This document shows positions 1-44,350 of a stretch of 64,000 nt of DNA, piece after piece. The stretch spans positions 118,138-182,137 of the forward strand of contig CBDDIJ010000004.1 in assembly GCA_965228855.1 (NCBI GenBank), read 5' to 3'. Source of the DNA: Candidatus Obscuribacterales bacterium (GTDB lineage Bacteria > Cyanobacteriota > Vampirovibrionia > Obscuribacterales > Obscuribacteraceae). Made by a program: the position numbers and the translations under genes. The first letter of the stretch is position 1; every line of letters starts with the position of its first letter. Below the pieces are notes generated by a model. The model saw only the letters and a list, made by a program, of their open reading frames with translations, made no database searches and had not been told where the DNA came from.

Positions 1-29
1 GCCGTCTTGGTCAGCTTGAGTTTGGTCAT
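1..29 (-). CDS. 5' end of a tyrosine integrase of an upstream sister element (runs off the window)
   Basis: Minus strand reads MTKLKLTKTA, matching the integrase N-terminus MARLKLTKTA at 19919; the upstream leader is also homologous. Confidence 0.85.
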
Positions 30-214
30 TGTTCGTCTCCGAATTCAAAAAACTAGGAGCCGAATAGGGGCACTCAGGCTCCTAGCTCCCGGCTACAACC
101 GCGTGCTAGGGAGAACCTCGAGTGGTTGACGACGCAAGCTAAGTCTTTGTATCGTCGTACTGTTTCGGGGTATTACCTACAATCGGCGGGGACCAGCATA
201 GACGCAAAGGCCCC

Positions 215-229
215 GCTCAAAATCCGGTT
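215..229 (+). repeat. att core direct repeat (left), GCTCAAAATCCGGTT
   Basis: Identical 15-mer at 20106-20120; corresponds to the tRNA-Leu(CAA) anticodon loop and 3' stem. Confidence 0.85.
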
Positions 230-364
230 GCCTCTACCCTCCACACGCAGCGCAATATCGATGTGGGTCAAGTAGTTAGGAGAGTTGCGCTTCTCAATTT
301 GTGATCGTTCGGATTTTGCCTAGGTGCAAAATGAGAGCGCTCAGAGACAGTGAGTTAGCACTGT

Positions 365-449
365 GCGGGTGTGGTGAAACTGGTAGACGCGCTGGATTCA
401 AAATCCAGTTCCGAAAGGAGTGTCGGTTCGAGCCCGACCACCCGCACCA
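365..449 (+). tRNA. tRNA-Leu(CAA), 85 nt, CCA encoded
   Basis: Acceptor GCGGGTG/CACCCGC, anticodon arm CTGGA-TTCAAAA-TCCAG, long variable arm, T arm GTCGG-TTCGAGC-CCGAC. Confidence 0.97.
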
Positions 450-499
450 TCTCATCAAACTACCAATCGGGTAGGAGCTCGGACTCTCACCGGTGCCGT

Positions 500-792
500 C
501 ATTTCCACGGCGCGGCGTTGGACGATGCTGTCGCGTTTGGACAGTGGCAGGGCGCGCGCCTGCTGGTTGAACGCGGAGTGCTGACTGCGCCGTGGCATTC
601 GGCAGCTCTCGGTCTGCTGGGGCGGTTGGAGGCATATTTCGCCGACGCCAATCCGTTGCCCGCCTGGCATCCGAGGGGAGCGCCAATACGAGGCCCGTGA
701 GTAAGGTCACGATTGCTTTCTGGTGTGTGTGTCATGGCGGATAGCGCGCGGCGGCCGAGTATCTCCTTGGACGCGGCGCTGACTTGGATGTC
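500..792 (+). pseudogene. Ankyrin-repeat protein remnant
   Basis: LDDAVAFGQWQGARLLVERG, then in another frame AFWCVCHGG*RAAAEYLLGRGADLD with an internal TAG at 742-744. Confidence 0.65.
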
Positions 793-920
793 ACCTTGAA
801 ATGGTCTGTCCCCACCGGATGCAGCCGCCCGTAGCGGCGCGGATGACATTGTGGCAAGTCTCAAATGACTTGGGGCAGGGTCGGCGCGAGAATGATGCCC
901 GACTTCCTTCACCGAAGCCG

Positions 921-1337
921 CTAGGACGCGAGCGCTTCGAGCACCGGGCAATCGGGAACCGCCTCGCCCGAGCATTGTGCGGCAGTCTCGGCGAGCACGC
1001 GCTCGATGCGCCTGAGGTCGGCGATCTTGCCGCGCACGTCCTTGAGGTGCAGTTCCGTCCGCTGCTTCACCTCTGCGCAAGTCTGCCGCTCGGTATCGAC
1101 CAAAGCCAGCAATCCCCTGATCTCCGCGATATCGAAACCGAGCTCCCGTGCTCTCAGGATGAAGCGAAGCCGCTGGACATGAGTGTCGTCGTAGGCGCGG
1201 TAGCCATTGGCGCGGCGCGGGGGCTCAGGCAACAGATCGATCTTCTCGTAATACCTGACGGTCTCGAGGTTGCAGCCCGTTCGGGCCGCGAGTTCGCCGC
1301 GCCTGAGGTTTGTCGCAAAATCGTGATCGGCGCGCAT
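921..1337 (-). CDS. merR: Hg(II)-responsive MerR-family regulator
   Basis: MerR HTH (ETVRYYEKIDLL), three Cys in MerR positions (TCAE, QCSG, DCPV), divergent from merTPAB. Confidence 0.9.
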   Translation of the reverse strand: MRADHDFATNLRRGELAARTGCNLETVRYYEKIDLLPEPPRRANGYRAYDDTHVQRLRFILRARELGFDIAEIRGLLALVDTERQTCAEVKQRTELHLKDVRGKIADLRRIERVLAETAAQCSGEAVPDCPVLEALAS

Positions 1338-1348
1338 TCAGACACCCC

Positions 1349-1379
1349 TTGAGCCTGTAGTTGCTACAGAGACTATCGT
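1349..1379 (+). promoter_or_regulatory. MerR-type promoter/operator of the mer operon
   Basis: TTGAGC-19 bp-TATCGT with dyad CTGTAG-TTG-CTACAG in the spacer. Confidence 0.85.
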
Positions 1380-1408
1380 GTGCCTCATCGGAAATCGATG
1401 GGCACCAT

Positions 1409-1813
1409 ATGCAGACCGCATCAAATGACCTTGAAGGCGCCGCCGCCGAGCATGCGACGCCACGCGCGAGACGGACTCTTCTGGCTGCGGGCGGCATCGT
1501 CGGCGCCATCCTGGCGTCGGCCTGCTGCATCCTGCCACTAGTGCTCGTCACTCTCGGAGTCTCGGGCGCGTGGATCGGCAGCCTGACGATGCTCGAGCCC
1601 TTCAAACCCTATATCGCGGTCGTGACCCTCGGGTTGATCGGCGGCGGCTTTTGGCACGTGTACGTCAGAAAGCCCGCTGCCGTCGTCTGCGGGCCCGACG
1701 GCTATTGCGCTCGTCCCGAGTCCACGGTCATCACTCAGGTGGTGCTCTGGATTGCGACAGCACTCGTGCTTCTCGCGCTCACCATCGGCTGGTGGGCTCC
1801 GTTCCTCTACTGA
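1409..1813 (+). CDS. merT: Mercuric transport protein MerT
   Basis: ASACCILPL in TM1, GAWIGSL, C-x5-C loop, three TM segments. Confidence 0.9.
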
Positions 1814-1825
1814 AAGTCGGAAGAT

Positions 1826-2146
1826 ATGAAACGCGCAACCCTCGTCCTCGCCGCCATGATTGCCATGGGAGGATCGTTCACAGCACTTACGACTGTCCCC
1901 GCCGCGCTCGCACAGTCGGAAGCAGCGACACAGACGACTGTGTTCGCCGTCGAGAACATGTACTGCGAGTTGTGTCCGCTCGCCGTGAAGACCGCGATGG
2001 AACGTGTACCCGGCGTCACGCTTGTTGTTGTCGACTTCGACGACAAGACCGCGACCGTAACCTTCGACCCTGCGATTGCGACCATGGAGGCAATCGCCGC
2101 CGCATCGACGAACCTCGGCTATCCTGCTCACGTCTCGGGTGCTTGA
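1826..2146 (+). CDS. merP: Periplasmic mercury-binding protein MerP
   Basis: Signal peptide, HMA motif MYCELCP, C-terminal GYP. Confidence 0.88.
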
Positions 2147-2199
2147 CCCTTCACCCGGTCGCCACCTCTTCGATAGCGCCGACAACATTAGGGGCTGCA

Positions 2200-3642
2200 A
2201 TGAACGAACACGACCACTTCGACCTCGTCATCCTGGGGTCAGGATCGACGGCTTTCGCGGCCGCATTGCGCGCCCAGGAGATGGGCAAGACGTCGGTGAT
2301 GATTGAGCACCGGGCCATTGGAGGCACGTGTGTCAACCGGGGCTGCCTGCCGTCCAAGAACCTCATCGATGCGGCACTGCTCGTTCATGAGTCCCGCAAC
2401 CCGCGCTACTCCGGTCTCACGACGGACGGCCAGGGGCTGCGCGTCGACTTCCGGGAGCTGATTTCGCAGAAGGACGAAGTCATCCTCGACTACCGCAAGA
2501 AGAAGTACGACGGCCTGCTGGGCGGTCGGTTCAGCGTTGTGGAGGGCACCGCTCGGCTTGTCGACGCTCAGACGGTCGAAGTTGATGGCCGGCGTCTCAG
2601 CGGCGAGCGTATCCTGATCGCCACCGGCTCGCGTCCATCCATCCCTGACATTGAAGGACTCGACGCCGTCCCCTATCTCACCAGCGACCTGCTGACCCAT
2701 GGCGAGGGCCAGGAGTTGGCTGACCTGCCTCCGTCACTGCTGATCGTCGGCGGCGGCTACATCGCGCTCGAACTGGGCCAGATGTTTGCGCGCTTCGGCA
2801 CCAGGGTGACGATTGTCAGCCGCAACAGCCAGCTTCTCGCCCATGGCTACGAGCCGGAGGTGGGCCGTGAGATCGGCAAGGCCTTCGCCGACGAAGGCAT
2901 CGCCGTTCTCAATGAGGCCACCGTTCAAAGGGTGCGCGCGGTCGAGGTGGGCATCTCCGCTGAGGTTCGGATCGGCGGCGGCATCCAAGTGTTAGAGGCA
3001 AGCCACTTGCTGATCGCGACCGGGCGACGGCCCAACAGCGATGACATCGGGCTTGAGGCCGCCGGTGTCAGGGTCAACAAGCGCGGCGAAGTCGAAGTCG
3101 ACGCGGAGCTCCGCACGCCGGTGGCTCATATCTTCGCGGCGGGCGATGTGATCGGTGCCCAGCACGGAAGCCAGATGGCGACGCCGGTCGGCGCTCGCCA
3201 GGGGATCATCGCAGCCCACAACGCGTTGTCGGTGGAACCGCCGCGGCGGTTCGATGATCGCGTCATCCCGCGCGCCATCTTCACCGATCCGCCGGTCGGG
3301 ACCGTCGGCATGACGGAAGCCGAAGCGGTAGCAGCTGGACATCGCTGCTGGTGTCGGCCGCTGCCGATGAGCCTCGTTCCGCGCGCCGGCGCCACCCGCG
3401 ACACGCGTGGCGTCATCAGGATGGTCGCCGATGCCGACACCAACGAGGTGCTCGGTGTCTCGATGGTGGGTGCGGCGGCCCATGAGGTGATTCATGAGGC
3501 TGCGATGGCAATGCGCTTCCGTGCCAAACTAACCGATTTCGTCGACCTCTTGCACGTCTATCCAACGATGGCCGAGGCACTCAAGATCGCCGCGATCGCC
3601 CGGACCAAGAACCCGGCCAAACTTTCATGCTGTGCGGAGTGA
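2200..3642 (+). CDS. merA: Mercuric reductase MerA (no NmerA domain)
   Basis: [13 protein letters not shown] redox disulfide, YPTMAE, C-terminal LSCCAE; start at ATG 2200 rather than 1570. Confidence 0.93.
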
Positions 3643-3647
3643 GGACG

Positions 3648-4397
3648 ATGACTGATGCAGGCGGTAGCCCGGTGGAACTTCGGCCGGGGGTGTTTCGCCC
3701 AGATTGGTCAGCCGCCAAAAGTGCGGCAGCAAGGCGCGCACTCGAGGAACGCGCCGACGCTCGCGAGGGGCTATTGGACAAGTGGGCGCATGCTCTCGAC
3801 CCCGAGACAGACCGAGTGTGGCGCTTGACGCTCCAACTGTACGGGAGTGCAGGGCTGCCGCCCTCGCCGGGCGAGATCGCCGCTCAAGCTGAAGTTCCAG
3901 AGCGGGTGGTCAAGGACGCGCTACTCGTTCTGCAGAGTCACGACCTCCTGAAGCTGCGGAACGATGGGAGCATCCTCTATGCCTACCCATTCACGCAGGA
4001 ATATTCGGGCCACACGATCGTCCTGGGCAACCACGAGCTAGAGTCCCTGTGCGCGATCGACGCGCTCGGGACGGGCGCGATGTTCGGTGCTGACGTCAAG
4101 GTGGGTTCTTCGTGCCCGGTGTGCGACGGACCGGTCAATGTCTCCACCAGTGACCGCGGCACATCGATCGGCGAGGTCAGTCCTACCGACGCAGTCGTCT
4201 GGTATGAGTGCTCCTATGGCGAAAGCGCGGCCTCGTCATGCTGTCCCTCGATTGCCTTCTTCTGCTCGCGTGACCACCTCCAGGTTTGGCTGGCGCAGAA
4301 CCCGGATGCGAACGGAATGCAACTCGCAGTCGATGAAGCCCTGGAGGTTGGCAGGGCGATCTTTGGCCCAGTGCTACAGACGAGCAACAGCATCTAA
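3648..4397 (+). CDS. merB: Organomercurial lyase MerB
   Basis: N-terminal HTH, AYPF, LCAIDALG, SCCPSIAFF motifs; directly follows merA. Confidence 0.85.
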   Translation: MTDAGGSPVELRPGVFRPDWSAAKSAAARRALEERADAREGLLDKWAHALDPETDRVWRLTLQLYGSAGLPPSPGEIAAQAEVPERVVKDALLVLQSHDLLKLRNDGSILYAYPFTQEYSGHTIVLGNHELESLCAIDALGTGAMFGADVKVGSSCPVCDGPVNVSTSDRGTSIGEVSPTDAVVWYECSYGESAASSCCPSIAFFCSRDHLQVWLAQNPDANGMQLAVDEALEVGRAIFGPVLQTSNSI

Positions 4398-4519
4398 CGG
4401 CAGCGAGGGCGAGCCGTACGGAGCCGCGCAACTGGGATCTGGACCAGCCACGGCGGACCTCCCCAGGTTAGTTGCCCTGATATGCCAGTGATGACGCGGG
4501 AAACACTCGGGAATTCGGA

Positions 4520-4942
4520 ATGCCGCAGCCGCCAAAGTCCGACATCCTCATGCGACTGGTGATCAGGGACCCTGTGCCGGGTGTCGTGCATAGCTTGCAG
4601 GACAGGGACGGCACGCCGGTCGACGCGAAGTGCTCGGCGTCAGGTGAGCCGATTTTGTTCGAGTTCCCGGTCCGTGTTTCGCCCGGCCCGAAATTCTATG
4701 GCGAACAGGTCCGCAACGGCGGCGCAGAACGTCGCTTCGTCTACATCGCGGTGGGCAGACAGGCTGGCGATCCAGCGTCATGTTGGGATCGACGCATGAA
4801 GATCGATATTCACACCATCCCGCAAGGCCTGGTTGAGGATGCGACCGATCGGAAGTTGCTTGAAGGCGTCGTTGGCGGAACTGGTGCGGACGGTAGCCCG
4901 GCCTGCGCCACAGTCCCGGTCCGGTCGTGGCGCACCGTTTAG
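4520..4942 (+). CDS. Conserved hypothetical protein (DUF5990-like)
   Basis: RRFVYIAVG...WDRRMKI...GSPACATV resembles DUF5990 family as recalled. Confidence 0.6.
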   Translation: MPQPPKSDILMRLVIRDPVPGVVHSLQDRDGTPVDAKCSASGEPILFEFPVRVSPGPKFYGEQVRNGGAERRFVYIAVGRQAGDPASCWDRRMKIDIHTIPQGLVEDATDRKLLEGVVGGTGADGSPACATVPVRSWRTV

Positions 4943-5075
4943 TGGGGCTGAACGTGTCTGGATACGCGGGAAGGGAGCCACGCGGAACGCGCCAACGGCA
5001 ATCGGTTTTCCCCACCTCGGCAGCCGACCAATTGGGATGCCGTTGACCGTTCGCGCTCAGGCTCGGAACGGCCGA

Positions 5076-5471
5076 CTAATCGGGGGCATCGTGGCAATTC
5101 GGGTCCCATTGGCATTTGCCCGACTGACAGTCGGCAATGACCTTCCGAATGCTGCTGCGGACTCGTTTGAGATCATCGATGCGACGTTCGACACGTTCGA
5201 GGACAGCGGTGAGCTTTGCCTGACCGTGGCGTTTGCTCATCATCCCAGCGTCGATCTGGCCCAGGGTCAGGGCAATCTCATCAAGACTGAATCCAAGTGT
5301 CTGCAGGAATTTTGCCATGCGGATCCGCTCCGCGGCGGCCGCCGAGTAAACGCGGTAGCCGGAGGGCCTGCGGTCGGGCGGCGGCAAAAGCCCCCGCCGC
5401 TCGTAAAAGCGGATGGTGTCGACGCTTACCCCGGCTTCGCGGGCCAATTCACCAATCTTTAGCGCCTGCAC
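5076..5471 (-). CDS. MerR-family regulator
   Basis: LKIGELAREAGVSVDTIRFYERRGLL; C-terminal C-x4-C-x5-C. Confidence 0.9.
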   Translation of the reverse strand: MQALKIGELAREAGVSVDTIRFYERRGLLPPPDRRPSGYRVYSAAAAERIRMAKFLQTLGFSLDEIALTLGQIDAGMMSKRHGQAKLTAVLERVERRIDDLKRVRSSIRKVIADCQSGKCQWDPNCHDAPD

Positions 5472-5480
5472 ATCACACCC

Positions 5481-5512
5481 TTGACTCTAGACCACGGTCC
5501 AGAGTCTAGAAA
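5481..5512 (+). promoter_or_regulatory. MerR-type promoter/operator
   Basis: TTGACT followed by dyad ACTCTAGACC-AC-GGTCCAGAGT and a weak -10 about 20 bp downstream. Confidence 0.7.
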
Positions 5513-5577
5513 GTCTCCCGTCAGGCCACAAGCCCGCATGGGAAAGTGGTCCCAGGCCATTTGGAAGGGATCAGGAA

Positions 5578-5985
5578 ATGAACGAACTAGCACCGGCAGC
5601 CGTGCCACAAATTGCGTGTGATATGACCGCTCTCGACAAGGACCAGCTTGCAAAGCTGGCCGCCGAAGTGGAGGCGGTCTATCGCAGCACAACCGATCTC
5701 CGCGTGCTCAAGGACGGCTTCGCGCTCGGTGTGGCGGATGCCGATTTTGAAACCTTCCGCCGCATGGCAGAAGTCGTTGCCTATGACCGGCTGTGCTGCC
5801 ACTTCATCCACCACGCCATCGTGGCCGAGCCAGAGTCGAAGACGGCGTGGCTCTACTTGAGCGGCGGCACTGGCGTGAAGGAGTACATCGCCGGGGATTT
5901 GCGTAGGGGCTTCCCACCCGAAAGCAGGCTGGGCGGACTCGTCCGCGCTGCCTACGGCGAAGGACCAGTCGAGGCGATCGCTTAG
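5578..5985 (+). CDS. Uncharacterised Cys-motif protein (IACD...CCHF)
   Basis: Good RBS and ATG; divergent from MerR; shares motifs with 7803-8192. Confidence 0.75.
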
Positions 5986-6320
5986 CTAGAGCGTGGGGCA
6001 AACAGGATGATGGCGGCGGCTGCGAGCGCGAGCAGTCCGCCGCCCATATCCCACAGGTCCGGACGGCGCCCTTCCGCCATCCACAGCCATAGCAGCGACG
6101 CCACGATGTATACCCCGCCGTAGGCGGCATAAGCGCGGCCGGCGTAGTCGCTTGGTGCCAGAGTGAGGAGCCAGGCGAAGGCGATGAGCGAGGCCACGCC
6201 GGGAACAAGCCACCATATCGAGTGTCCCTGCCGCACCCACATCCAGAATGCGAAGCAACCGGCGATTTCGGCGACGGCCGCACCGGCGAAGGTCAGGAGA
6301 GTGGTCAGGGCTATGGGCAT
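5982..6320 (-). CDS. YnfA (UPF0060) family small multidrug-type membrane protein
   Basis: [24 protein letters not shown] motifs. Confidence 0.9.
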
Positions 6321-6358
6321 GGCGACGCTTCCATCAGGGATCGATCCATCAAGGTGGA

Positions 6359-7066
6359 TCATATTCGCGTCGTCAGCGTAACCAGCCACTCCGGCATGAC
6401 TCGCTCGAGCGCAATTTGAACTGGACGGTCGAGACCGCTCAAGATCAAGGCGCCAGCGACAATCAGCAGAGCTCCCAAGGCCATTTTGAAACCCGAAGCG
6501 GCGCGGCTAAGCCGTCCACGCCACCGGAGCAGCAACTCCCGCGAAAGCACCCCGAGCAGCAACAGCGGCAAGCCTGTGCCCAGGCCGAACGCGAGCATGG
6601 TCAGCGCGACGAGACCGAGATTCTCGCCACGCGCCGCCATGAGCGAGGCAGCGCCCAGGGTCGGGCCAACGCAGGGCGTCCACACCGCGCCCATGAGCAG
6701 GCCCACCCCGAATTGGCCACCCACGCCGGTTGGGGAAAACCGCCCAAAACGGCTTTGCGTCCAATCACCGACCGGACCGGCTGCGACGGCTAGTTGCATC
6801 TGGAGGCGGGGCACCAGGAGCACAGTGCCAACAGCGATCAGCAGGATCGCCGCGATCATCCGAAACACACCGGTATCGAGCCCGACCGAAAAGCCGATCG
6901 TGGCCACGAACAGACCAATCGCTGTGAAGGAGATGGCGACACCGGCCGCCAGGGCCACGGGGCCCAGGCGGTGCTCCGCTACGGCTGCCCCCAGGACCAC
7001 GGGAATCAGGGGCAGTACACAGGGCGACAAGGTGGAGAGGATGCCGGCGATAAAGGCGAACAGCAT
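6359..7066 (-). CDS. ccdA: CcdA/DsbD-type thiol-disulfide transporter
   Basis: LSPCVLPL and WTPCVGPTL motifs, six TM segments. Confidence 0.88.
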
Positions 7067-7072
7067 GATCGT

Positions 7073-7465
7073 CTAGCACACCTGCCGCAGCAGCATCTCA
7101 ATCTCGCCGGGATCGGTGATGCCGACCGCGCGATCGACTTCCCGGCCGGCCCGAAACACGATCATGCTGCCCTGGAACTGCACCTTGAAAGCGTTCGCCA
7201 CATCCTTCTGCGTGTCGAAATCCACGTTGAAGATGACGATCTGCGCAAGATCGGGCCTCGCCGTGAGCTCAGCTACGATCGGGATCTGCACATGGCAGGT
7301 TTCGCACCATTCGGCCGTCACGTGAACAAGGATCGGCACGCCGGCAGCCATGGCTTCGTCGAACGCCTGCTGGGTAAACGGCACCCGCTCGGATGCCGCC
7401 GCAGGGCCGATCAGCAGGAGTGCGAGAATGGCGCCAAGAATCGTGCGGCGAAGGATCTGCATCAT
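7073..7465 (-). CDS. Exported thioredoxin-family protein
   Basis: Signal peptide, WCETC active site. Confidence 0.88.
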   Translation of the reverse strand: MMQILRRTILGAILALLLIGPAAASERVPFTQQAFDEAMAAGVPILVHVTAEWCETCHVQIPIVAELTARPDLAQIVIFNVDFDTQKDVANAFKVQFQGSMIVFRAGREVDRAVGITDPGEIEMLLRQVC

Positions 7466-7806
7466 GCGTCCCCCTGCTCGAGAAGCTTCCGCTGGCCGGT
7501 GGGCAACTCAACCGTGGCTTCTGATCCGCAGCCGCACCCGCTGTCCTTGACGGTAATCTCTGCCGGCGCGGCCGGAGCCTGTCTACGACGCGAGAACCAG
7601 ATGTACCCGCCTGCCGCTGCGACGATTGCGAGAGCAACAGCCACCTGCCCGAGGAACGCCAGGCTGGCGCCACTCAGAGCGAGCACGCCCACCACCCAAG
7701 GCGCGATCAGGGGCGCCACCAGCGGCGCGCAACATGCCGCGCACGCGGCGATAAACAGGCCGCCGGTTGCGGCCGCGCCCTTCCCCATTTTTCCCGCGTT
7801 CTTCAT
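7462..7806 (-). CDS. Small Cys-rich membrane protein (MerT/MerF-like topology)
   Basis: ACAACCAP in TM1, C-terminal CGCG; overlapping start/stop with both neighbours. Confidence 0.7.
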   Translation of the reverse strand: MKNAGKMGKGAAATGGLFIAACAACCAPLVAPLIAPWVVGVLALSGASLAFLGQVAVALAIVAAAGGYIWFSRRRQAPAAPAEITVKDSGCGCGSEATVELPTGQRKLLEQGDA

Positions 7807-8192
7807 GCGACCTCGCGGGCGAGGTGAGGCGCGAAATGCGCGAACAGTTCGTCGGCAGCAGTGGCTGCGGCCGCCGGCGCCGTGATCGTCAGTTCTACGG
7901 CCGTCTCGTCATAACGTAGGTCGAAATCCATGAAGGCACAGCAATCGGATTCCTTGGCGACCAGGTCCTGCATTTCGGCGAGGGCCTCCGGCCCGTAGGT
8001 CAAGTGCAGCCTCAAAGGTTCGCGCCGGCTCGCCTTGAGCGACCGGCGGGCGAGGTCCTCGATGCCCGCGACGCGGGCCTTGAAGTCGCCGGCGCCCAGT
8101 GTGCAGGAGATCGCGAGGGTCGTCTGATCAACGGCCGGGCTGCAGGTGTCGCAGTAGGCGTCAGCCCGTAGCGCGGTTGTAATGGCATTCAT
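7803..8192 (-). CDS. Uncharacterised Cys-motif protein (CDTC, ISCTL...CCAF)
   Basis: RBS AAGGAG and ATG at 8192; motifs shared with 5578-5985. Confidence 0.75.
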   Translation of the reverse strand: MNAITTALRADAYCDTCSPAVDQTTLAISCTLGAGDFKARVAGIEDLARRSLKASRREPLRLHLTYGPEALAEMQDLVAKESDCCAFMDFDLRYDETAVELTITAPAAAATAADELFAHFAPHLAREVA

Positions 8193-8225
8193 GCGAAATG
8201 CTCCTTTTCGTAAGCCTATGGCCAA

Positions 8226-8256
8226 GTCCTACTCCTTCAAGTAACTTGAAGGGCAA
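8226..8256 (-). promoter_or_regulatory. MerR-type promoter/operator (leftward operon)
   Basis: TTGCCC-19 bp-TAGGAC with perfect dyad CCTTCAAGT-A-ACTTGAAGG at 8234-8252. Confidence 0.85.
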
Positions 8257-8271
8257 CAGGAGCTTGTTCCG

Positions 8272-8715
8272 ATGAATGTTCACGTTCGCGTGTTGACGAT
8301 TGGAGCGTTGGCCAAGGCCGCCGGCGTGACAACCCCCACGATCCGCTACTACGAGGAAATCGGTCTTCTGCCGGCAGCTGGTCGCACGGCGGCCGGGCAG
8401 CGCGTCTATGATGGCAGCGATGTAGAGCGGCTGACATTCATTCGCCGCTGCCGTGACTTTGGGTTTTCGATCGAGCAGGTGCGCGCTCTTGTCGGCCTCT
8501 CGATCAGCACAGACAGGGACTGCGCTCCGGTGCGCGATATCGCCAAAGGGCACCTTGAGGAGGTCCGCACCAAGCTCGATGAACTGAAAGCTCTTGAGCG
8601 CAGCCTCGAGACCTTCGTGGTCCAGTGCGACACGGTATGCGCAGGAGGGGCCGGGCGCGACTGCGTGATTTTCAAGGATCTCGCTAAGCCGGCAGCCGTC
8701 GCAGGATGTTGCTAA
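8272..8715 (+). CDS. MerR-family metal-responsive regulator
   Basis: LTIGALAKAAGVTTPTIRYYEEIGLL; Cys at DCAP, QCDTVC, DCVI and terminal CC. Confidence 0.92.
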   Translation: MNVHVRVLTIGALAKAAGVTTPTIRYYEEIGLLPAAGRTAAGQRVYDGSDVERLTFIRRCRDFGFSIEQVRALVGLSISTDRDCAPVRDIAKGHLEEVRTKLDELKALERSLETFVVQCDTVCAGGAGRDCVIFKDLAKPAAVAGCC

Positions 8716-8739
8716 GGGTCGCGCCGAGCGTGTTGAGGC

Positions 8740-8770
8740 GTGAACCTCAAGTTGCTTGAAGTCCTATCTT
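8740..8770 (+). promoter_or_regulatory. Second MerR-type promoter/operator (arginase-MFS)
   Basis: GTGAAC-19 bp-TATCTT containing CTCAAGTTGCTTGAAG, near-identical to the 8234-8252 dyad. Confidence 0.7.
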
Positions 8771-8800
8771 CCGAGCTCCCACGATCCAAGGAGCTCTTCA

Positions 8801-9736
8801 ATGGACACTCTCTCAAAGCGATTGGCGGTTGTTGGCGTCCCCTCCGGGGCCGGCGCGTGTGGTGTGGGCCAGGAGGAAACGCCGGCCGCGATGCGTGCTG
8901 CGGGGCTCATTGAGCATCTCGGCCGGGTAGGCTTCGACGTCGCCGACCTCGGCGACTCCGAAGTCATCCCATGGCGCCCGGATCGCGCTAGTCCCCGCGC
9001 GCAGAATGTTGGAGCGATCGCCGGCATGCTCCGATCAACCGTCAGTCGAGTGGCAAGCGCGCTGTCGGAGGAGCGCAAGCGGATGGTGCTCGTGCTCGGC
9101 GGCGATTGCACGGTAGGCATCGGGACCATGGCCGGCGTTCGACAGGCGCTTGGCCCCGTCGCGTTGGCCTATTTCGACCTGCACTCCGATCTCAACACCC
9201 CCGAGAGCATGTCCGACGGCGCGATCGACTGGATGGCGCTCGGGCACATGCTGGCGATCGAAGGCAGCGATCCCGACTTACTCAGCGCGGCCGGCCAACA
9301 GCCGGTCATCACACCTGACCACATCGTGATGATTGGCCAGGACCGTTCTCGCGCGACCAGGTTCGAACGACGCCAACTCGATGAGTTCGGCATCCCAATC
9401 GTGCCTGTCGATGAAGTCCGGGCCGATCCACGAGCTGCCGCCCGCCGCGCGCGCAATTTGCTCGCCGAGCGTAGCGATCGCTATGCGATCCATCTCGATG
9501 TCGACGTCGTCGACTTCACCGATGCCCCACTGTCCGAACACCCGTCGCGCAATGTCGGCCTCAGGCTCGAGGAGATGCTGAGCGCCTTGAGGGTGCTCGC
9601 ATCGGGGCCGGGCCTGATTGCAATCACGCTCACCGAACTCAATCCTCACAACGCTGCTTACGACCCAGGATTGCTTGATCGGTTCGTCGCAAGATTGTCC
9701 GAGGCCATTTCGCGTGCCGGCACCGATCTACGCTGA
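8801..9736 (+). CDS. Arginase/ureohydrolase-family protein
   Basis: GGDCT, FDLHSDLNTP, HLDVDVVD, TELNP motifs. Confidence 0.88.
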   Translation: MDTLSKRLAVVGVPSGAGACGVGQEETPAAMRAAGLIEHLGRVGFDVADLGDSEVIPWRPDRASPRAQNVGAIAGMLRSTVSRVASALSEERKRMVLVLGGDCTVGIGTMAGVRQALGPVALAYFDLHSDLNTPESMSDGAIDWMALGHMLAIEGSDPDLLSAAGQQPVITPDHIVMIGQDRSRATRFERRQLDEFGIPIVPVDEVRADPRAAARRARNLLAERSDRYAIHLDVDVVDFTDAPLSEHPSRNVGLRLEEMLSALRVLASGPGLIAITLTELNPHNAAYDPGLLDRFVARLSEAISRAGTDLR

Positions 9737-9811
9737 CACGGGCAATCCATCGACGCCGTCGAAGCCAATATCCTTTGGATGTTTTGACGACTGGAATGCT
9801 AGCATCGTCAC

Positions 9812-11059
9812 ATGAAACTGGAGCGAATTTCCAACGGGATGCTTCCGGCCGGACTGCACCCCGGATGGCCAGTTCTGTTTGCGGCCATGGTCGGTACTTT
9901 CATGACCATACCCGGCCAGACCGTGGGCGTCGCGCCTTTCGTCGACCATATTGGCTCAGACCTCCAGCTCCAGCGCGACCACGTCCTGTTGCTCTATAGC
10001 CTGGGCACCTTGCTTGGCATTCTGCCGGCACCCCTCATTGGCCGTCTCATCGACAGATACGGTCCCAGGCGCGCTATTGCGGTCATTGTTCCGGCGGTCA
10101 GCGCGGCGTGCGTTGGACTCTCGCTGGTGACCGGCCCGCTGGGTTTGGCAATCGCCTTCACTATGCTGCGGGGCTGCGCTATTGGAGGCTTGAACCTCGT
10201 CAGTGGGCATATGATCAACCTGTGGTTCGACCGGTATCGCGGTCGCGCCAACGCAGTGTCCATGATGGGCCTGGCCTTCGGCGGATTCGTCGTTCCGGGA
10301 CTGGCTGAGCAGATCACGGGGGTGTTCGGTTGGCGGAACTCCTATCTCGCCCTGGCCGCAGGCGTCCTTGTGATTATGCTTCCGGTGGGACTGCTGTTCT
10401 TTCGCAACCGACCGCAAAGTTACGGCGAGGTGCCGGATTTTGGGCGGGCATCGGCAACGAGGGTCGCCGAGCTTGCAGGTGGGCTGAGCGTCAGGGAAGC
10501 GCTGCGTACACCGATGCTGTGGTATCTGCTGGCAGTTGCAGTGATCGTCAACGCGGTGGGGACGGCGCTGCTGCTGGATCAGTTGCGCGTGCTCACCTCC
10601 GCCGGGCTGGAGCGTGCGACGGCAGTTGGCCTGCTGGGTGTTGTTACTTTTGCGCAGGCCATCTCCGTTCTCGGTGGCGGTGTGCTGATCGACCGCGCCG
10701 GCACGAGGCCCCTCAGTGTACTGGGTCTCCTGGTAGGAGCATTGTCCATCACCTGCGTGATGCTGGCTCCCGGTTTGGTCGCGGGTTGGGCATACGCGGC
10801 CTCGCTCGGGGCCTTCCTTGGCCTTCTCCAGGTTTCTCAGGGGGCGGCCGTCGCCGAGCAGTTCGGCACGCGTGCGCTGGGGACACTGAGAGGACTGGTC
10901 TTCGCCGTCGGCGTCTTGGGGGCGGCGGCCGGTCCCCTGCCGATGGTCTTATGGTCTGAAGAAGCGGGCTACACGATCTTCCTGGCGCTGATCGCCGGCG
11001 CCGTGCTGCTGGGAACACTGGCATCGGCGCCAAAATGGCAGGTCGCACCGGGACAGTGA
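9812..11059 (+). CDS. MFS transporter
   Basis: 12-TM pattern, GRLIDRYGPR motif A. Confidence 0.9.
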   Translation: MKLERISNGMLPAGLHPGWPVLFAAMVGTFMTIPGQTVGVAPFVDHIGSDLQLQRDHVLLLYSLGTLLGILPAPLIGRLIDRYGPRRAIAVIVPAVSAACVGLSLVTGPLGLAIAFTMLRGCAIGGLNLVSGHMINLWFDRYRGRANAVSMMGLAFGGFVVPGLAEQITGVFGWRNSYLALAAGVLVIMLPVGLLFFRNRPQSYGEVPDFGRASATRVAELAGGLSVREALRTPMLWYLLAVAVIVNAVGTALLLDQLRVLTSAGLERATAVGLLGVVTFAQAISVLGGGVLIDRAGTRPLSVLGLLVGALSITCVMLAPGLVAGWAYAASLGAFLGLLQVSQGAAVAEQFGTRALGTLRGLVFAVGVLGAAAGPLPMVLWSEEAGYTIFLALIAGAVLLGTLASAPKWQVAPGQ

Positions 11060-11063
11060 CACA

Positions 11064-12638
11064 TTAATGGGCGTGCCCCTCGGGCACGTCGGCTGGCGAG
11101 TGCTCAATTCCAACGGGCTGACTTAGATCATCGACCACCACAAACTGTCCCATCATACCCATGTCCTCGTGCTCGAGGATGTGACAGTGGAACATGTAGG
11201 GCATGTTCGGATCGGCATAGTCCGCAAATCGCATGATGATGCGCACTGTCTCTGCCGGTAGCACTACCACGGTGTCCTTCCATCCCTGCTCGTAGAGGGG
11301 CGGCGGTCGGCCATCGCGGTCGAGCACCTGGAACTGAACGCCGTGCACGTGGAAAGGGTGATAGGACACGGAGAGATTCTGCACGCTCCAGATCTCGAGG
11401 TCGCCGCGGCGCACGATCTGGTCGATGCGCATATGATCCATGGCCAGGTTGTTGATGGTGCGTGCCTCCGGGTCGAGTGTGAATTTGCGAGTACGCACGG
11501 CATCACCTTCCGCATAGCGCTCGATGGCGCTCAGCGTCGGTGGAATCGACTCCGCTGGAAAACTGCCAGCGCGCGTCCGCAGTTCGAGGATCTGGAACTG
11601 CTGCTTCTCGTCGTTATCCGGAAGGAAGATGCCCTGCGCGAGATTGATGATCGGGTTCACCGGATCGATGATCGGGTAACTCACCAGGGTGATCGCTGCG
11701 GGTGCGTCGCTTAGATTGACGAGAATTTCGGCTCGCTCGGCGACAGCGAGGATCATGCGTGTGCGCTCCACCGGCGCAGCGAGCAGTCCGCCATCGCTTG
11801 CGATTTGCCAGAATGGCCGTCCATCCGACAAGCCGAAGTTGTAACGCCGTGCATTGGAGCCGTTGATCAGACGTAGGCGAACGAGCTTCGCTGGCACGTC
11901 CAGGTATGGTGCATAGGTGCCGTTAACGAGAATGGTATCGCCCAGCATTCCCGGTGTGATGAGCGCGTCATCATCGTGTCGATAGACCAGTTCCCCCGCA
12001 TCGTCGAACAGCCGGTCCTGCACCACGAGGGGTATATCGTCGATGCCGTAGTCCGCAGGCAGGTCGAGCGCATCTGAATTCGCATCGTCGATCAGGAACA
12101 CCCCGGCAAGGCCGCGATAGACCTGCTCGCCGGTCTTGCCCATGAGATGAGGGTGGTACCACAGCGTTGCCGCTTGGTTCTTGATCGTCCAGTTCGGCGA
12201 CCAGGAACCCCCGGCCTCAATCACCTGATGCGGCCCGCCGTCCATGGCCGCAGGCAGCTCCATGCCGTGCCAGTGCACCGTCGCGGTCTCGTCCAAGGCG
12301 TTAGTGATCTCGAAGCGTACAGCGTCACCCTTGCTCGCCCGGAGCGTTGGCCCAAGGTAGCTACCATTGAAGCCCAGCGTTGCCGTCTGCTTGCCGGGCA
12401 ACAGTTCGGCAGTTCCGCTTTGCACGGCCAAGGTGAACACCTTGACGCCATCCACTACTCGAGGTTCGAGGAGCGGCGGGATGTGCAGCCTCTGCGTCAG
12501 CGCGATCTGCGAATTCGGATAGGTCGTGGTCTCGAAGCTCGGGTAGATCAGTGCCGCCGACAGCACCACGATGATCACGATGCCGAGGACGGCAACGAAA
12601 CCGAGGATGACCTTGGGCAAGAGGCGCAGCCGGCGCAT
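11064..12638 (-). CDS. Multicopper oxidase (CueO/SufI-like)
   Basis: HWHG, WYHPH, HPFHVH, HCHILEHEDMGM copper sites; start after GGAGAGG RBS. Confidence 0.92.
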   Translation of the reverse strand: MRRLRLLPKVILGFVAVLGIVIIVVLSAALIYPSFETTTYPNSQIALTQRLHIPPLLEPRVVDGVKVFTLAVQSGTAELLPGKQTATLGFNGSYLGPTLRASKGDAVRFEITNALDETATVHWHGMELPAAMDGGPHQVIEAGGSWSPNWTIKNQAATLWYHPHLMGKTGEQVYRGLAGVFLIDDANSDALDLPADYGIDDIPLVVQDRLFDDAGELVYRHDDDALITPGMLGDTILVNGTYAPYLDVPAKLVRLRLINGSNARRYNFGLSDGRPFWQIASDGGLLAAPVERTRMILAVAERAEILVNLSDAPAAITLVSYPIIDPVNPIINLAQGIFLPDNDEKQQFQILELRTRAGSFPAESIPPTLSAIERYAEGDAVRTRKFTLDPEARTINNLAMDHMRIDQIVRRGDLEIWSVQNLSVSYHPFHVHGVQFQVLDRDGRPPPLYEQGWKDTVVVLPAETVRIIMRFADYADPNMPYMFHCHILEHEDMGMMGQFVVVDDLSQPVGIEHSPADVPEGHAH

Positions 12639-12660
12639 TCTTCCTCTCCGAGTGCCAAGA

Positions 12661-12690
12661 TATAAGCATATGGGCACGCAAATGCATATA
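12661..12690. promoter_or_regulatory. ArsR/SmtB-type operator
   Basis: Imperfect dyad TATAAGCATATG-N6-CAAATGCATATA between the divergent oxidase and ArsR genes. Confidence 0.6.
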
Positions 12691-12753
12691 TCTGAAGCTT
12701 GCGCCCAAACGGTCTTGAGTCGGATAGTCAGATTGCGAGGATGGAGCGAGACC

Positions 12754-13080
12754 ATGAGTATGTCGCGCCGGCAAATGGCCGATAAGTGTGTGGCGGCCTT
12801 CGATATCGAATTCTTCCGCGCCATGTGCGAACCGGCACGATTGGCGGTTGTGCGCGAGCTGATGGTCCTGGGGCGTGCCGATATCGCTGCCGTCGCAAAG
12901 AACCTACCTCAGGACAGGTCGGTCGTCGCACGCCACTTAAGGCAGTTGGCCGCCGTCCAGGTCGTCACGGCCACCAAAGAGGGGCGGCATGTCTACTATC
13001 AGATTGACGCAGCTGGCGTCAGATCGCGCATGGAGGGCCTGCGGGAACTCGTGGACCTCGTTCAGTCAGTGGTAGACTAG
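12754..13080 (+). CDS. ArsR/SmtB-family regulator
   Basis: FFRAMCEPARL, SVVARHL, KEGRHVYY. Confidence 0.85.
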   Translation: MSMSRRQMADKCVAAFDIEFFRAMCEPARLAVVRELMVLGRADIAAVAKNLPQDRSVVARHLRQLAAVQVVTATKEGRHVYYQIDAAGVRSRMEGLRELVDLVQSVVD

Positions 13081-13122
13081 ACGGCCCCAACAGACCTGCC
13101 TCGGCCATTGCGGCCAGCGTGT

Positions 13123-14367
13123 CTACGAGACCGGCCTCGAACGGCCGAAGCCGCCGCTGGATCTCCACGCGGCGGCCCAGAACGCCAGAGCCATGATCAC
13201 TGACGTGGCGACGATAGCCGCCAGCACGACGGCATAGCTGCCGGTGGCGGCCCAGATCCAGGCCGCTGCAAGAGGTGCAACTGCTTTGGCCAACACCATT
13301 GGGACAGCCAACGCACCATTGATAGCGCCGTAGGATTCCCGGGAGACCATCTCGGGGATAGCAATCCCGCGAACAATGGTCATGACGCCGTTTGCGCCGC
13401 CGTAGAGAACGGCGACCAGAGCTATGATCCAGAACTGCTGTGGTGCGAGGTAGAGGATGGTCATCGCCACAGGGAATATCGCCACCACAAGGAAACCGAT
13501 CCGCCGACCCGACACCTCGCCAGCGAACACCTTGACCACCACCCTGCCCACTACTTGCGCTGGTCCGATAATCGCCATTGCGAGAACCACCGTGCCGGCA
13601 TCGAAGCCGCGCTCCAGCATCATCGGGTAGAAGTGGAAAATGAACGCCGAGAAGGTCGCGGTATAGGCGCCGAATGCGACCGCCAACCCCCAGAACACGG
13701 GGTTGCGCAGTGCCAAGACGAGAGGCGGATGTGCCGCCTCGCCTCTCACAATTGGGCGGGCCGGTTGGTCTCGTCGAGGATCGATGACCAAGAAGTAGAG
13801 GGCGGCGCAGAGCACGATGTTGACCGCACCTAGCACCTCGAGTGTCCCGCGCCAGCCGAAGGCATCCAGCAGAATTTGGATGAGGGGTACAAAGACCGTC
13901 GAAGCGAAGCCGCCCCAGAGCGTCAAAGCAGTGATGCCGTTGCGCGAATGCTCTGGACCAGCCCTGCGAGCGATCACGGCGAAGGCCGGCTCGTACAAGG
14001 TCGCCGCCTGCAGTGCCCCAACCGCGGCGGCCGTCAGGTAGAAGAGCGGAAGGGAATCGACCTGTGACCACAGGAGCAGCATGAGGCCGGCTAGCACCGA
14101 TGCGGCGGCCATCACATATCGACCGTGCCCGCGATCGATGGCAGCGCCAACGGGCACCGCCACCAGCGCTGACAGGAGCAGCCCGATCGTGGCGCCGAGA
14201 TAGAGGTCCGTCTTCGACCACCCGAGGTCAGCCTCCATCGCGGACGCGATCAACGGGAAGCTGTAGTAGAGCGAACCCCATGAACATATTTGCGCGACGC
14301 CGAGGCCGGTGATGAAGGTGCTCGCCCCCCGCACCGGCTGGCCAACACCAGCCGCGGAGTCCGTCAT
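13123..14367 (-). CDS. arsK: MFS arsenical efflux permease (ArsK-like)
   Basis: QICSWGSLYYSF, ATLYEPAF, TLWGGFASTVF; ATGA-coupled to the flavoprotein gene. Confidence 0.7.
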   Translation of the reverse strand: MTDSAAGVGQPVRGASTFITGLGVAQICSWGSLYYSFPLIASAMEADLGWSKTDLYLGATIGLLLSALVAVPVGAAIDRGHGRYVMAAASVLAGLMLLLWSQVDSLPLFYLTAAAVGALQAATLYEPAFAVIARRAGPEHSRNGITALTLWGGFASTVFVPLIQILLDAFGWRGTLEVLGAVNIVLCAALYFLVIDPRRDQPARPIVRGEAAHPPLVLALRNPVFWGLAVAFGAYTATFSAFIFHFYPMMLERGFDAGTVVLAMAIIGPAQVVGRVVVKVFAGEVSGRRIGFLVVAIFPVAMTILYLAPQQFWIIALVAVLYGGANGVMTIVRGIAIPEMVSRESYGAINGALAVPMVLAKAVAPLAAAWIWAATGSYAVVLAAIVATSVIMALAFWAAAWRSSGGFGRSRPVS

Positions 14368-15761
14368 GCGGGTTCGGACACTTTCACCGGTTGAGTAGCC
14401 GATGTGCCGCAGCCGCACCCAGCTTCGCCCTCCGATTTGGCAACCTCATCGGCCACACAGCAGGAGCTCTCGGATGCCGCCGGACCGCCACAACAGCTCG
14501 ACGCACCTAGGGACGCTGGGGCCACGCTGCAAACGCCGGTTTCCGGCAGAACCAGATGTACTTGGCGAGCAGCCACGTGATCACCCGCAAGCTCTGCGAC
14601 GACGGAGCGAACCTGCTCGTATCCGGTCGCCATCAGGAACGTTGGCGCCCGTCCATAGGACTTTGACCCAACGATGTAGAAGCCGGCTTCGGGCTGCGTC
14701 AGCTCGTCGACACCATGCGGCGGTACCGTACCGCAGGAATGAAAGTTCGGATCGATCAGTGGCGACAGAGCCGGCGGGGCTTCTGTGGCCGGATCCGTGG
14801 CGATACGCAACTCGGACAGCATGCCGAGGTCGGGGCGGAAGCCTGTAGCGACGACGACGCGGTCAACCAGCAGCGTCCTAGAAGTGTCGCCGAGCATGCC
14901 CATCACCGCCACGCCGGTGTCCGATCGCGCCAGCCGCGTTGCCGCAAAGGGGGCCAGGATTTGTAGTCGTCCTGCATCTATCGCTCGCTTGGCCGCCAGC
15001 CCCAAGGCGCCTCGTTCAGGCAACTGGTCGTTGAGACCGCCGCCGAGAAGTTTCTCGATCCGATTGCGACGCAGTGCCCAAAGCACCTTGGTGTTCGGGT
15101 CTTGGTCCTGAAGCGAGAGCAGCGCGAGCGCCGCATTGATCGCGGAGTGCCCGCTGCCGACGACCAGCACGGTCTTGCCGGCGTAGGTTCCGCGCTCAGT
15201 GCCGAGGACGTCCGGAATTCCATAGGAAATCGTGTCGCTCACGGTGCGCTCGCCGAGAACCGGCAGACCGTCGACCCCAATTGGGTTGGGTTGGGTCCAT
15301 GTACCCGAGGCGTCGATCACCGCACGTGCCAAGGTCGCCTGCTCGTTGCCATTCACATCGGTCCAGCGAATCTCGAATGGGGCCTTCTCGCGACCGGAGT
15401 TCGAGACCTTGTCGAGGCCCTGCCGGGTGATCGATGTCACGGTGGCGCCGAGGTGCAGATGCGGAGCGATCTGCGGCAGCTCGGCCAGCGGCTGCAGGTA
15501 GCGATCGACGATCTCGCCGCCGGTCGGCAGGTCGGTGTCCTCGGGCGCATCCCAGCCGGACGCCTCAAGGAGCGAACGGGCAGTAGCGTCGATGTTGTAC
15601 TGCCAGGGCGAGAACACCCGGACGTGGGACCATTCGCGCAGCGACGCGCCCACACCTGCCCCGCGCTCGAAAATCACCGGCGTGAGGCCGCGGGAGACGA
15701 TCTGCGCGGCAGCGGCGAGGCCCACGGGGCCGGCGCCGATCACGGCGATTGGGAGGGTCAT
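14364..15761 (-). CDS. FAD-dependent monooxygenase (ArsV/ArsO-like)
   Basis: GAGPVG and GSGHSA motifs, HSCGTV, SYGRAPTFL, Cys-rich tail. Confidence 0.82.
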   Translation of the reverse strand: MTLPIAVIGAGPVGLAAAAQIVSRGLTPVIFERGAGVGASLREWSHVRVFSPWQYNIDATARSLLEASGWDAPEDTDLPTGGEIVDRYLQPLAELPQIAPHLHLGATVTSITRQGLDKVSNSGREKAPFEIRWTDVNGNEQATLARAVIDASGTWTQPNPIGVDGLPVLGERTVSDTISYGIPDVLGTERGTYAGKTVLVVGSGHSAINAALALLSLQDQDPNTKVLWALRRNRIEKLLGGGLNDQLPERGALGLAAKRAIDAGRLQILAPFAATRLARSDTGVAVMGMLGDTSRTLLVDRVVVATGFRPDLGMLSELRIATDPATEAPPALSPLIDPNFHSCGTVPPHGVDELTQPEAGFYIVGSKSYGRAPTFLMATGYEQVRSVVAELAGDHVAARQVHLVLPETGVCSVAPASLGASSCCGGPAASESSCCVADEVAKSEGEAGCGCGTSATQPVKVSEPA

Positions 15762-15811
15762 CGTTTCTATCCTTCTAGAAGGTTCGAATATCGGGTCAAA
15801 ACAAAAGCGGC

Positions 15812-16132
15812 TCAGGCGGCGGCTTCCTGGGTTTCGGTGGCGCAGCCGCTGTCCGCGCAGCACTCGTCGGCGAGGTATCCGATGAGGGAGTTCATGCTGG
15901 AGTAGTTGGCGCGGCAGATTAAGGTCGTCGCCTGACGCTCCTGGCTGACGAGGTTCACCTCGACGAGCTTTTTGATGTGGTGCGACAAGGTCGAGCCGGC
16001 GATGTCCAGTTTGAGCTGGAGCTTGCCGACCGGAAGGCCGTTGTCACCCGCGCGAACGAGCGTCCGGTAGATTGTGAGCCTGGTCGTGTTGCCAAGCGCT
16101 TCGAGCTGCGATGCGACTGTTTCGAGTTTCAT
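15812..16132 (-). CDS. arsR: ArsR-family regulator
   Basis: ALGNTTRL, STLSHH, C-terminal ECC. Confidence 0.85.
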   Translation of the reverse strand: MKLETVASQLEALGNTTRLTIYRTLVRAGDNGLPVGKLQLKLDIAGSTLSHHIKKLVEVNLVSQERQATTLICRANYSSMNSLIGYLADECCADSGCATETQEAAA

Positions 16133-16247
16133 GGAAATAGCGTAGCGGCGCCGGATCGGCTCGTCAAGCATATTTCCACAATGATCGAAATTTCTGTCAT
16201 CAAACCTTCACTGGACACTCGCTTGTTGTATCCATAATCCTCGATAT

Positions 16248-16607
16248 ATGGAATCACCACTTGCCGTCGATGCCTTCGCCGCATTGTCCCAGTCGACCCG
16301 TCTTGACGCCTTCCGGCTGATCATGAAGCACGAACCCGACGGCTTGCCGGCCGGCGAGGTCGCTCGGCTGCTCGACGTGCCCCAGAATACGATGTCGAGC
16401 CATTTGGCCGTCTTGGCCCGCGCCGGGCTCATCAGCTCGGAACGGCAAAGCCGGTCGATCATCTACCGGGCCGAGATCGACAAGGTTCGCGAGCTCGCGA
16501 GTTTCCTGGTGACCGATTGCTGCGGCGGCCGGCCCGAACTGTGCGAGCCGCTCGTCGCCGAGTTCACACCATGCTGCCTTCCCGGGGAGGGAAAGAATGC
16601 CTGCTGA
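16248..16607 (+). CDS. arsR: ArsR-family regulator
   Basis: ALSQSTRL, NTMSSHL, DCCGGRPELC. Confidence 0.9.
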   Translation: MESPLAVDAFAALSQSTRLDAFRLIMKHEPDGLPAGEVARLLDVPQNTMSSHLAVLARAGLISSERQSRSIIYRAEIDKVRELASFLVTDCCGGRPELCEPLVAEFTPCCLPGEGKNAC

Positions 16608-18208: not shown

Positions 18209-18441
18209 CCAACCGCCAACTAGGGGCCGGTCCCCGCACCTGCGAACTAGAATAGCAGCAATTCTGCCTGCCTGCCGGGCGCAGCGAGCCCGTTTCGTTA
18301 GTTCGCGCCCGAACAGCTTGGAACCGCTAGTTTGAGCGCTGCTTTTTGTGGGTGGCGGTCCAGGACACGCCATCTCTTTGATCTTAGTTTCTCAAGAATG
18401 AGCGGTTGTACCAGTCTCCCCGGAAGGACAGCATAGATGAA

Positions 18442-18492
18442 GGCCCGCCCCGGCGAGATTCGAACTCACGACCTTTGCCTTCGAAGGGGCAA
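18442..18492 (-). pseudogene. tRNA-Arg-like 3' remnant (no D arm)
   Basis: TTGCC-CCTTCGAA-GGCAA arm, AGGTC, GTGAG-TTCGAAT-CTCGC T arm, CGGGGCG. Confidence 0.6.
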
Positions 18493-18502
18493 CCGACCAG
18501 CC

Positions 18503-41611: not shown

Positions 41612-44350
<2,739 letters not shown>

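Follow-up and report, generated by a model that had tools for sequence, protein, structure and literature searches.

In the 64,000-nucleotide stretch of DNA analyzed here (the window), and in the integrase family to which its mobile elements belong, integration breaks a tRNA-Leu gene of the host without repairing it, and the element brings a complete replacement tRNA-Leu. We regard this break-and-replace behavior as practically certain. The best combined explanation, namely break-and-replace with a spare tRNA altered in its anticodon loop, is in our opinion likely to be correct.

Contig C4 of the 8.2-Mb assembly G000 ends with the window. The GC content of C4 is about 29% up to base ~55,000 and 60-69% thereafter, and the switch (29% to 65%, the latter alphaproteobacterial) is abrupt and lies inside a trb region, upstream of the window. 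The other contigs of G000 have a GC content of 50-55% and their own tRNA-Leu(CAA), and the difference in GC indicates that the window is foreign to the main organism of the bin. Hence, contig C4 is chimeric and the window is Mesorhizobium-like DNA inside another organism's bin. The DNA itself is genuine: run X1 yielded a contig identical to 382-15119 at depth 3, and run X2 yielded many pieces matching the window at 99%. From 20160 to 64000, Pfam and comparison identified a Mesorhizobium-like host chromosome with a sensor kinase, secA, and prfA. The secA gene (41612-44350) was 84-85% identical to those of the Mesorhizobium genomes G002 and G019, and secA faces the tRNA-Leu 3′ end, ~9-11 kb apart, in G002 and in four Rhizobiaceae genomes. 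As to the main organism of the bin, we noticed a dense array of ~21 tRNA genes at G000:C3:724,500-728,000.

The original prediction was that a 15-bp core, GCTCAAAATCCGGTT, bounds an island, and both copies were found as claimed, at 215-229 and 20106-20120. A 13-nt part of it has just these two occurrences in the 8.2-Mb assembly. After the left copy there is indeed non-tRNA sequence; the right copy leads into a tRNA-Leu 3′ half, with its CCA end at 20159. The length of the core had to be revised: what the junctions share is actually the 7-nt anticodon loop CTCAAAA (216-222 and 20107-20113), and the match extends to 15 bp at this locus because the inner arm of this subfamily happens to start like the 3′ half of the host. 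In relatives, exactly 7 nt were common to both junctions in 54 of 63 cases, and at most 14 nt in the rest. We considered the left core as attL and rejected it, as positions 1-215 are the start of an integrase gene and the outer arm of a second element, an integrative and conjugative element (ICE). Because 1-215 belongs to this element A, the overlap at 216-222 (forward strand, first loop base C32) is the tandem junction between A and a downstream element B. At the right junction (20107-20159, forward strand), the loop is followed by the orphan 3′ half, which in relatives varies with the host while the outer (P) arm stays constant. The stretch 216-20113 is an island of mercury and arsenic resistance that follows a larger ICE in tandem.

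Element A enters the window with the 5′ end of its integrase gene (1-29, reverse strand), which encodes an intact protein of 482 aa with Arm-DNA-bind_3, Phage_int_SAM_3, and Phage_integrase domains and continues upstream. Its P arm (30-215, forward strand) aligns with 19920-20113, the P arm side of B, at 160 of 194 identical positions, and contains a putative arm-type direct repeat at 54-71. A similar repeat was present in the P arms of 70 of 79 relatives, and the integrase presumably binds there. These features mark the right end of A, which upstream of the window is an ICE with a T4CP, a DUF3363 relaxase, TrbB/TrbE-like proteins, RepA, ParB, ArdC, and restriction-modification cargo. It thus holds integrase, relaxase, coupling protein, and type IV secretion genes, and the contig join cuts its left end. 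Its cargo (L001:1-17214) includes an N6 methyltransferase (1047 aa), a C5 methyltransferase, and a large ORF assigned by motif as DEAD-box-like helicase; near G000:C4:108,860-109,030 there is also a degenerate piece of an integrase gene. In relatives, trbE lies between attL and attR in G003 and G004, and with the query used it was not found inside the elements of G001 or G002.

Element B begins, after the overlap, with its non-tRNA inner (P′) arm (223-364, forward strand), recognized by homology to the arms of relatives and bearing a putative arm-type repeat at 321-338. The spare tRNA gene comes next, and then, according to Pfam, a mer cluster (921-4397; merR, merT, a merP-like HMA protein, a merA-type reductase, and merB), further cargo (4520-15863; MerR regulators, YnfA, DsbD-TM/thioredoxin, an arginase-family protein, two MFS transporters, a multicopper oxidase, and a flavin oxidoreductase), and an ars cluster (15812-18208; two ArsR-like regulators, an LMWP-type ArsC, a MIP channel, and ArsC). 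Integrase B (18503-19919, reverse strand, Pfam) is in two frames owing to a frameshift near 19330, either real or an assembly error; the site lies outside the coverage of both source-study runs. The two integrase genes are 81% identical at the nucleotide level over 1.37 kb, and the intact integrase A might act on the ends of B. The P arm of B (19920-20106, forward strand) was placed by alignment, with an arm-type repeat at 19945-19962. The ORF and Pfam scan of B did not reveal a conjugation gene set. With metal-resistance cargo in B and conjugation genes in A, the two elements do not have the identity of temperate phages.

As predicted, a complete tRNA-Leu(CAA) lies inside the left end of B (365-449, forward strand, 181 bp from the junction loop) and is the sole tRNA found by ARAGORN in the window. 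When folded for minimum free energy, this sequence did not give a complete cloverleaf (z -2.5), and the tRNA call rests on ARAGORN. A possibility was that this is an ordinary restoring island, in which 365-449 would be attL, made of a host 5′ half and an island 3′ half, and 230-364 chromosomal flank. Indeed, the tRNA matches the right-hand 3′ half except at 3 of 53 positions (397, 407, and 432), and a gene with a downstream fragment is the classic Islander signature (PMC4383910). However, 230-364 is not chromosomal: it is 79% identical to an element arm located behind an orphan host 5′ half in Mesorhizobium G002 (shuffled control, mean 47%, maximum 52%). Over 216-364, identity to arms following orphan host 5′ halves was 79% in G002, 76% in G032, 65% in G001 and in G054, and 56% in G006. 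G002 and G032 also have replacement tRNAs identical to the spare, although the host tRNA of G002 is quite different, and what lies upstream of 216 is an integrase, not chromosome. Moreover, in contig X4, obtained independently by another freshwater study, a segment matching 19966-20105 at 98% runs directly into one matching 215-449 at 93%, with 15 letters shared at the joint, and the contig reads on through the tRNA. This is the attP form, which may come from a circle or a tandem junction, the two being indistinguishable there, and it joins 20105 to 215 and not to 398. Arm homology and the X4 joint together exclude the ordinary attL reading, to which we give next to no credence.

We could not follow the broken gene to its left side at this locus. 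The original prediction suggested looking upstream of the window for an orphan tRNA 5′ half, and none was found in the whole assembly at ≤8 mismatches, because the chimeric join in C4 removes the left end of the array. Nor was an island-free empty site of the same species found among 201 genomes of the family; the kinase region of the right flank matched in 6 of the 201, at 66-76%, with no tRNA beside any. Mesorhizobium G444 compared with G001/G002 served as the empty-site control instead.

Relatives provided the evidence for break without repair. A search with the integrase gave 80 loci in other genomes, and 79 with an upstream region were kept after L020 (partial integrase) was dropped. The P arm was followed by CTCAAAA or CTTAAAA and then by a tRNA-Leu 3′ half in 75 of the 79, as expected for a tyrosine integrase with these Pfam domains acting at a tRNA gene; three of the other four were cut by contig ends and one was at a non-tRNA site. 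Sixteen loci with one identical arm stretch had at least 9 different 3′ halves, showing that the arm is element-specific and the 3′ half host-derived. Orphan 5′ halves were sought by pattern searches of the genomes of relatives and in the retrieved regions (a T-loop match of G020 was not among these regions). Setting aside 4 genomes with no or a cut 3′ half and 12 without a matching orphan in the retrieved regions left 63. In all 63, the orphan 5′ half paired 7/7 in the acceptor stem with its own attR half. Rejoining the halves gave 61 pairs, all called tRNA-Leu, from 51 distinct sequences. A classical restoring attP fragment was not seen: the attL loop was followed by a non-tRNA arm in 63 of 63. 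In relatives, then, a short attP/attB core is used without tRNA reconstruction; the attL of the window locus is missing. The predicted disruption with replacement was borne out, as 61 of these 63 relatives with both host halves had a complete tRNA-Leu within 330 bp. The loop-to-loop distance was 180-197 bp for the 46 intronless spares and 192-292 bp for the intron-bearing ones, and replacement and host tRNA-Leu differed at 1 to 29 positions. The two exceptions, G042 and G055, had an attL without adjacent spare, and each had a U32 copy elsewhere. A strict search for the arm repeat upstream of orphan halves gave 0 of 68 in genomes and none among the 50 metagenome orphans listed, and therefore most broken genes are native. 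A looser alignment found shared-leader cases that this strict search had missed.

The altered core of the spare was confirmed as well: its anticodon loop (397-403) reads TTCAAAA, that is, U32, and the stem CTGGA/TCCAG pairs as described. This alteration is a property of the family. The crossover loop was altered in 60 of 61 spares, by C32U in 45 and by what appears to be a group I intron in 15. Among the 46 intronless spares, 44 had TTCAAAA, 1 had an 8-nt loop starting with T, and 1, in G015, had plain C32. The one extra T of the 8-nt loop (L176, G062:C7) could reflect faulty sequencing or belong to a tRNA resembling frameshift suppressors. Position 32 is the only difference between replacement and host tRNA in G017 and G024, and the sole TTTAAAA among 64 UAA matches was a replacement copy. 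In contrast, all broken tRNAs had C32, namely 79 attR loops, 63 orphans, and the 44 metagenome tRNA junctions listed. As a native control, we counted U32 by hand across the order in genomes with a single hit, and 43 of 130 had it, among the matches listed and with 9 multi-hit genomes dropped; in Mesorhizobium, 106 of 107 single hits had C32 (hand count). Naive Fisher tests gave P values of 1e-8 to 1e-15, the significance of which is inflated by related elements and by clustering of U32 hosts by taxon.

An independent metagenome scan returned at least 120 loci; those listed comprised 102 distinct ones, of which 41 had no arm repeat. These 41 included, among the matches listed, 27 tRNA-Leu(TAG), mostly native chance matches, and 7 TTCAAAA. 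The 61 distinct element-borne copies among the matches listed comprised 40 with U32, 12 with an intron, 7 with C32, and 2 UAG. Metagenome contigs L241 and L186 had a tRNA-Leu(UAG) in the slot of the spare, the broken gene in L241 being CAA.

The other way of altering the loop was an insert of ~210-240 nt, each ending in G, which split 15 of the 61 spares. Rfam model RF00028 matched 11 of 12 loci tested at E≤1.4e-4, below the gathering score, and L156 scored above it. The inserts lay after U34 in 10 UAA copies, after C34 in 4 betaproteobacterial CAA copies, and after U33 in 1, always within the overlap. All 15 copies keep C32, and the predicted spliced anticodon was that of the broken gene in 15 of 15 (10 UAA and 5 CAA). 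The inserts are thus probably group I tRNA introns, and splicing would restore the C32 loop of the host. In a FastTree phylogeny of 79 integrases (L069, a short ORF, was omitted), the intron/plain state changed 4 times and the target isoacceptor changed 4 times. We lean slightly toward the view that DNA-level target immunity of the spare evolved more than once, either through a change at position 32 or through recruitment of self-splicing introns at three positions of the overlap, the intron being kept since it hides the att site and leaves the RNA unchanged. The family would then carry tRNA-Leu introns over a broad range of hosts and give rise to replaced host tRNA-Leu genes in Proteobacteria.

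Protection from the element's own integrase is, judging from these patterns, the probable reason for the altered loop, and it would be leaky. C32 was kept in 7 of the 47 intronless CAA metagenome copies listed and in the copy of G015, and none of these was interrupted. TTCAAAA itself was used at two non-tRNA secondary sites (L188 and L203), and so a T at the first overlap base is no absolute block. A competing account accepts break-and-replace and dispenses with selection against self-targeting: U32 would be inherited from the donor or chosen at the RNA level, for decoding or for evasion of nucleases, and the introns would be selfish passengers. The native U32 of 43 of the 130 genomes of the order (matches listed) and the persistence of some intact C32 replacements fit this account, and nuclease evasion has reportedly been linked to anticodon-loop changes in phage tRNAs. 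In addition, although an intron removes the need for C32U, it could simply have arisen in a C32 lineage. Inheritance, however, has to accommodate that U32 persists across 23 distinct sequences among the 46 replacements, two of which are one base away from the C32 gene of their host. Likewise, selection for U32 in RNA would not lead one to expect that the mature RNA of the intron-bearing copies is predicted to regain C32 in 15 of 15 cases, and the intron state changed 4 times on the tree. The shared-leader tRNAs were also informative: those with C32 were interrupted in L108, L175, L244, and L254, and those with U32 were intact in L174 and L145, with the exception of L139 and L335, intact with C32 too. 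Taken together, we consider this account without protection unlikely and retain protection of the spare as the preferred reading.

How strongly the host depends on the spare is a separate matter. Complementation by the spare in vivo is very probable. A sigma-70-like promoter was not found between 223 and 364, the single site of the scan being 9/12 at 126-155. UUG can be read by tRNA-Leu(UAA) through wobble, and for this reason the host may depend only in part on the CAA copy. The spare tRNA-Leu(CAA) could thus be a fitness aid and not a requirement, with only UAA-targeting members dependent on their copy. This alternative has, in our estimation, somewhat less than an even chance; it is compatible with break-and-replace with a loop-altered spare and alters only the strength of dependence. 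The slot of L241, where a CAA gene is broken, is filled by a UAG tRNA, G042 and G055 do without an adjacent copy, and UUG makes up 17 of 312 Leu codons in seven host genes, all of which agree with a mere aid. Yet 61 of 63 genomes retain a cognate copy, most genomes have a single CAA gene, and a UAA copy is present in 10 of 10 UAA-targeting elements.

Several loci show variations of this arrangement. In L123 (G062:C6), the broken gene is tRNA-Leu(UAA), and the spare behind it has U32 and combines a body of CAA type with a UAA anticodon, a switch to the anticodon of the target. In L094 (G002:C1:3,426,927), a second identical spare lies behind a truncated integrase in a 68-kb element with a partly deleted tandem junction. 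In the Mesorhizobium-group loci L317 (G455), L319, L320-L323, L333, and L335, the only tRNA-Leu(CAA) among the matches listed has an element-type body with C32, in one of them still behind an arm repeat; such copies may be domesticated spares. L143 (G044:C54) has a different integrase family in tandem copies, where an orphan U32 tRNA-Leu 5′ half stands before the integrase and a tRNA-Leu(CAA), complete and with C32, comes 1.4 kb after it; this may be the reciprocal design. L141 (G046:C20), L142 (G060:C77), and L334 (G189:C32) are further break-and-replace cases with unrelated arms, in which spare and broken gene have the same loop, of UAA type in two of the cases and of CAA type in the third.

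We propose the following mechanism. As comparison shows, insertion leaves the host tRNA-Leu unrepaired, with its 5′ half at attL behind the host promoter and its 3′ half at attR. A complete tRNA-Leu with the same anticodon, found in the inner arm 180-292 bp from attL, would be expressed and take over decoding. If identity over 7 nt is all that is required, this could account for the observed range of hosts with very different tRNA bodies. An unaltered spare would be a perfect target, and making its loop unlike the overlap, by C32U or by a group I intron, would shield it, the intron breaking the loop in DNA and restoring it in RNA. In the window, the tandem of A and B (216-20113) would have arisen when the later arrival used the C32 junction and not the U32 spare. 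Identity over 7 nt would thus explain how one integrase uses very different tRNA-Leu genes across many genera, with metal-resistance and defense cargo. The proposal also suggests why selection might favor group I introns, which are patchily distributed among bacterial tRNA genes. Should the host need the spare, it would be tied to the element against imprecise loss of the latter. In practice, and judging from the published algorithm, island finders based on a gene plus a fragment would take the spare for attL and for the host tRNA, and set the left end off by ~180-200 bp.

In the open-access literature, we found no paper on this integrase family or on the alternation between point change and intron, and a plasmid search gave matches of tRNA length only. 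Classical islands at the anticodon-loop (A) site share with the present family a 7-bp overlap equal to the loop, tandem arrays, and a displaced attR 3′ fragment, but restore the gene from an attP fragment, which the present family does not (PMC4383910, PMC8371274). Element A resembles trb-type ICEs related to ICEMlSymR7A and Tn4371 in its T4CP, DUF3363 relaxase, TrbB/TrbE-like proteins, RepA, ParB, and ArdC; the main text of that survey of 41 Mesorhizobium genomes has no tRNA-Leu site (PMC8627217). Also set apart are ICEHpa1, with a 56-bp attP (PMC7438473), the phiLM21-like prophages, which reconstruct (PMC12429752), and an ICE of Sphingopyxis described in a preprint (10.64898/2025.12.11.693706).

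Pasteurellaceae ICEs (ICEPmu1 and ICEMh1 group) likewise disrupt tRNA-Leu, with an intact copy at one end and a 10-13 nt remnant of the anticodon loop at both ends. They differ in their hosts and in their XerD-like integrases of 30-36 kDa, as against the 482-aa Arm-DNA-bind_3 type of the window, and the passages devoted to them describe no protection mechanism (PMC6028734). In Sinorhizobium meliloti, Lo5R7ANS-like prophages similarly inactivate an alphaproteobacterial tRNA-Leu, here UAG, and replace it by a gene of the element; these are prophages in two strains and concern another isoacceptor (PMC11476347). tRNA-dependent lysogeny is described for actinobacteriophages such as Fionnbharth/K4, cluster L, and Gaia, the latter at tRNA-Leu-CAA (PMC10865867). 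As in our family, a tyrosine integrase with an arm domain uses a short tRNA core without reconstruction, and the cognate tRNA is carried. Those elements are phages, whereas ours are ICEs and islands of Proteobacteria with the spare inside the att arm. The requirement for the carried tRNA was tested in the phages and is a conjecture in our case. The sections on actinobacteriophages do not discuss an altered core in the spare, a feature present in our family (PMC10865867).

The closest precedent for protection comes from vTRX32-1-like prophages of Rhizobium, for which a spare without the att motif was proposed to prevent "super-integration" (PMC8631192); in the open-access literature, we found this term used with tRNA and prophage in that paper only. 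The idea is the same as ours, and a proposal in both cases. There, the element is a T7-like phage with a different core, CAGATTTAGGTT (TAG-type loop), and the parts of the article on these prophages give neither a single-base or intron mechanism nor counts across genomes (PMC8631192). With our family, the "super-integration" idea becomes testable by a one-base contrast. The break-and-replace principle and the protection idea are therefore already published, and the new part is the evidence, across a whole family, for two interchangeable ways in which the spare may be hidden from its own integrase.
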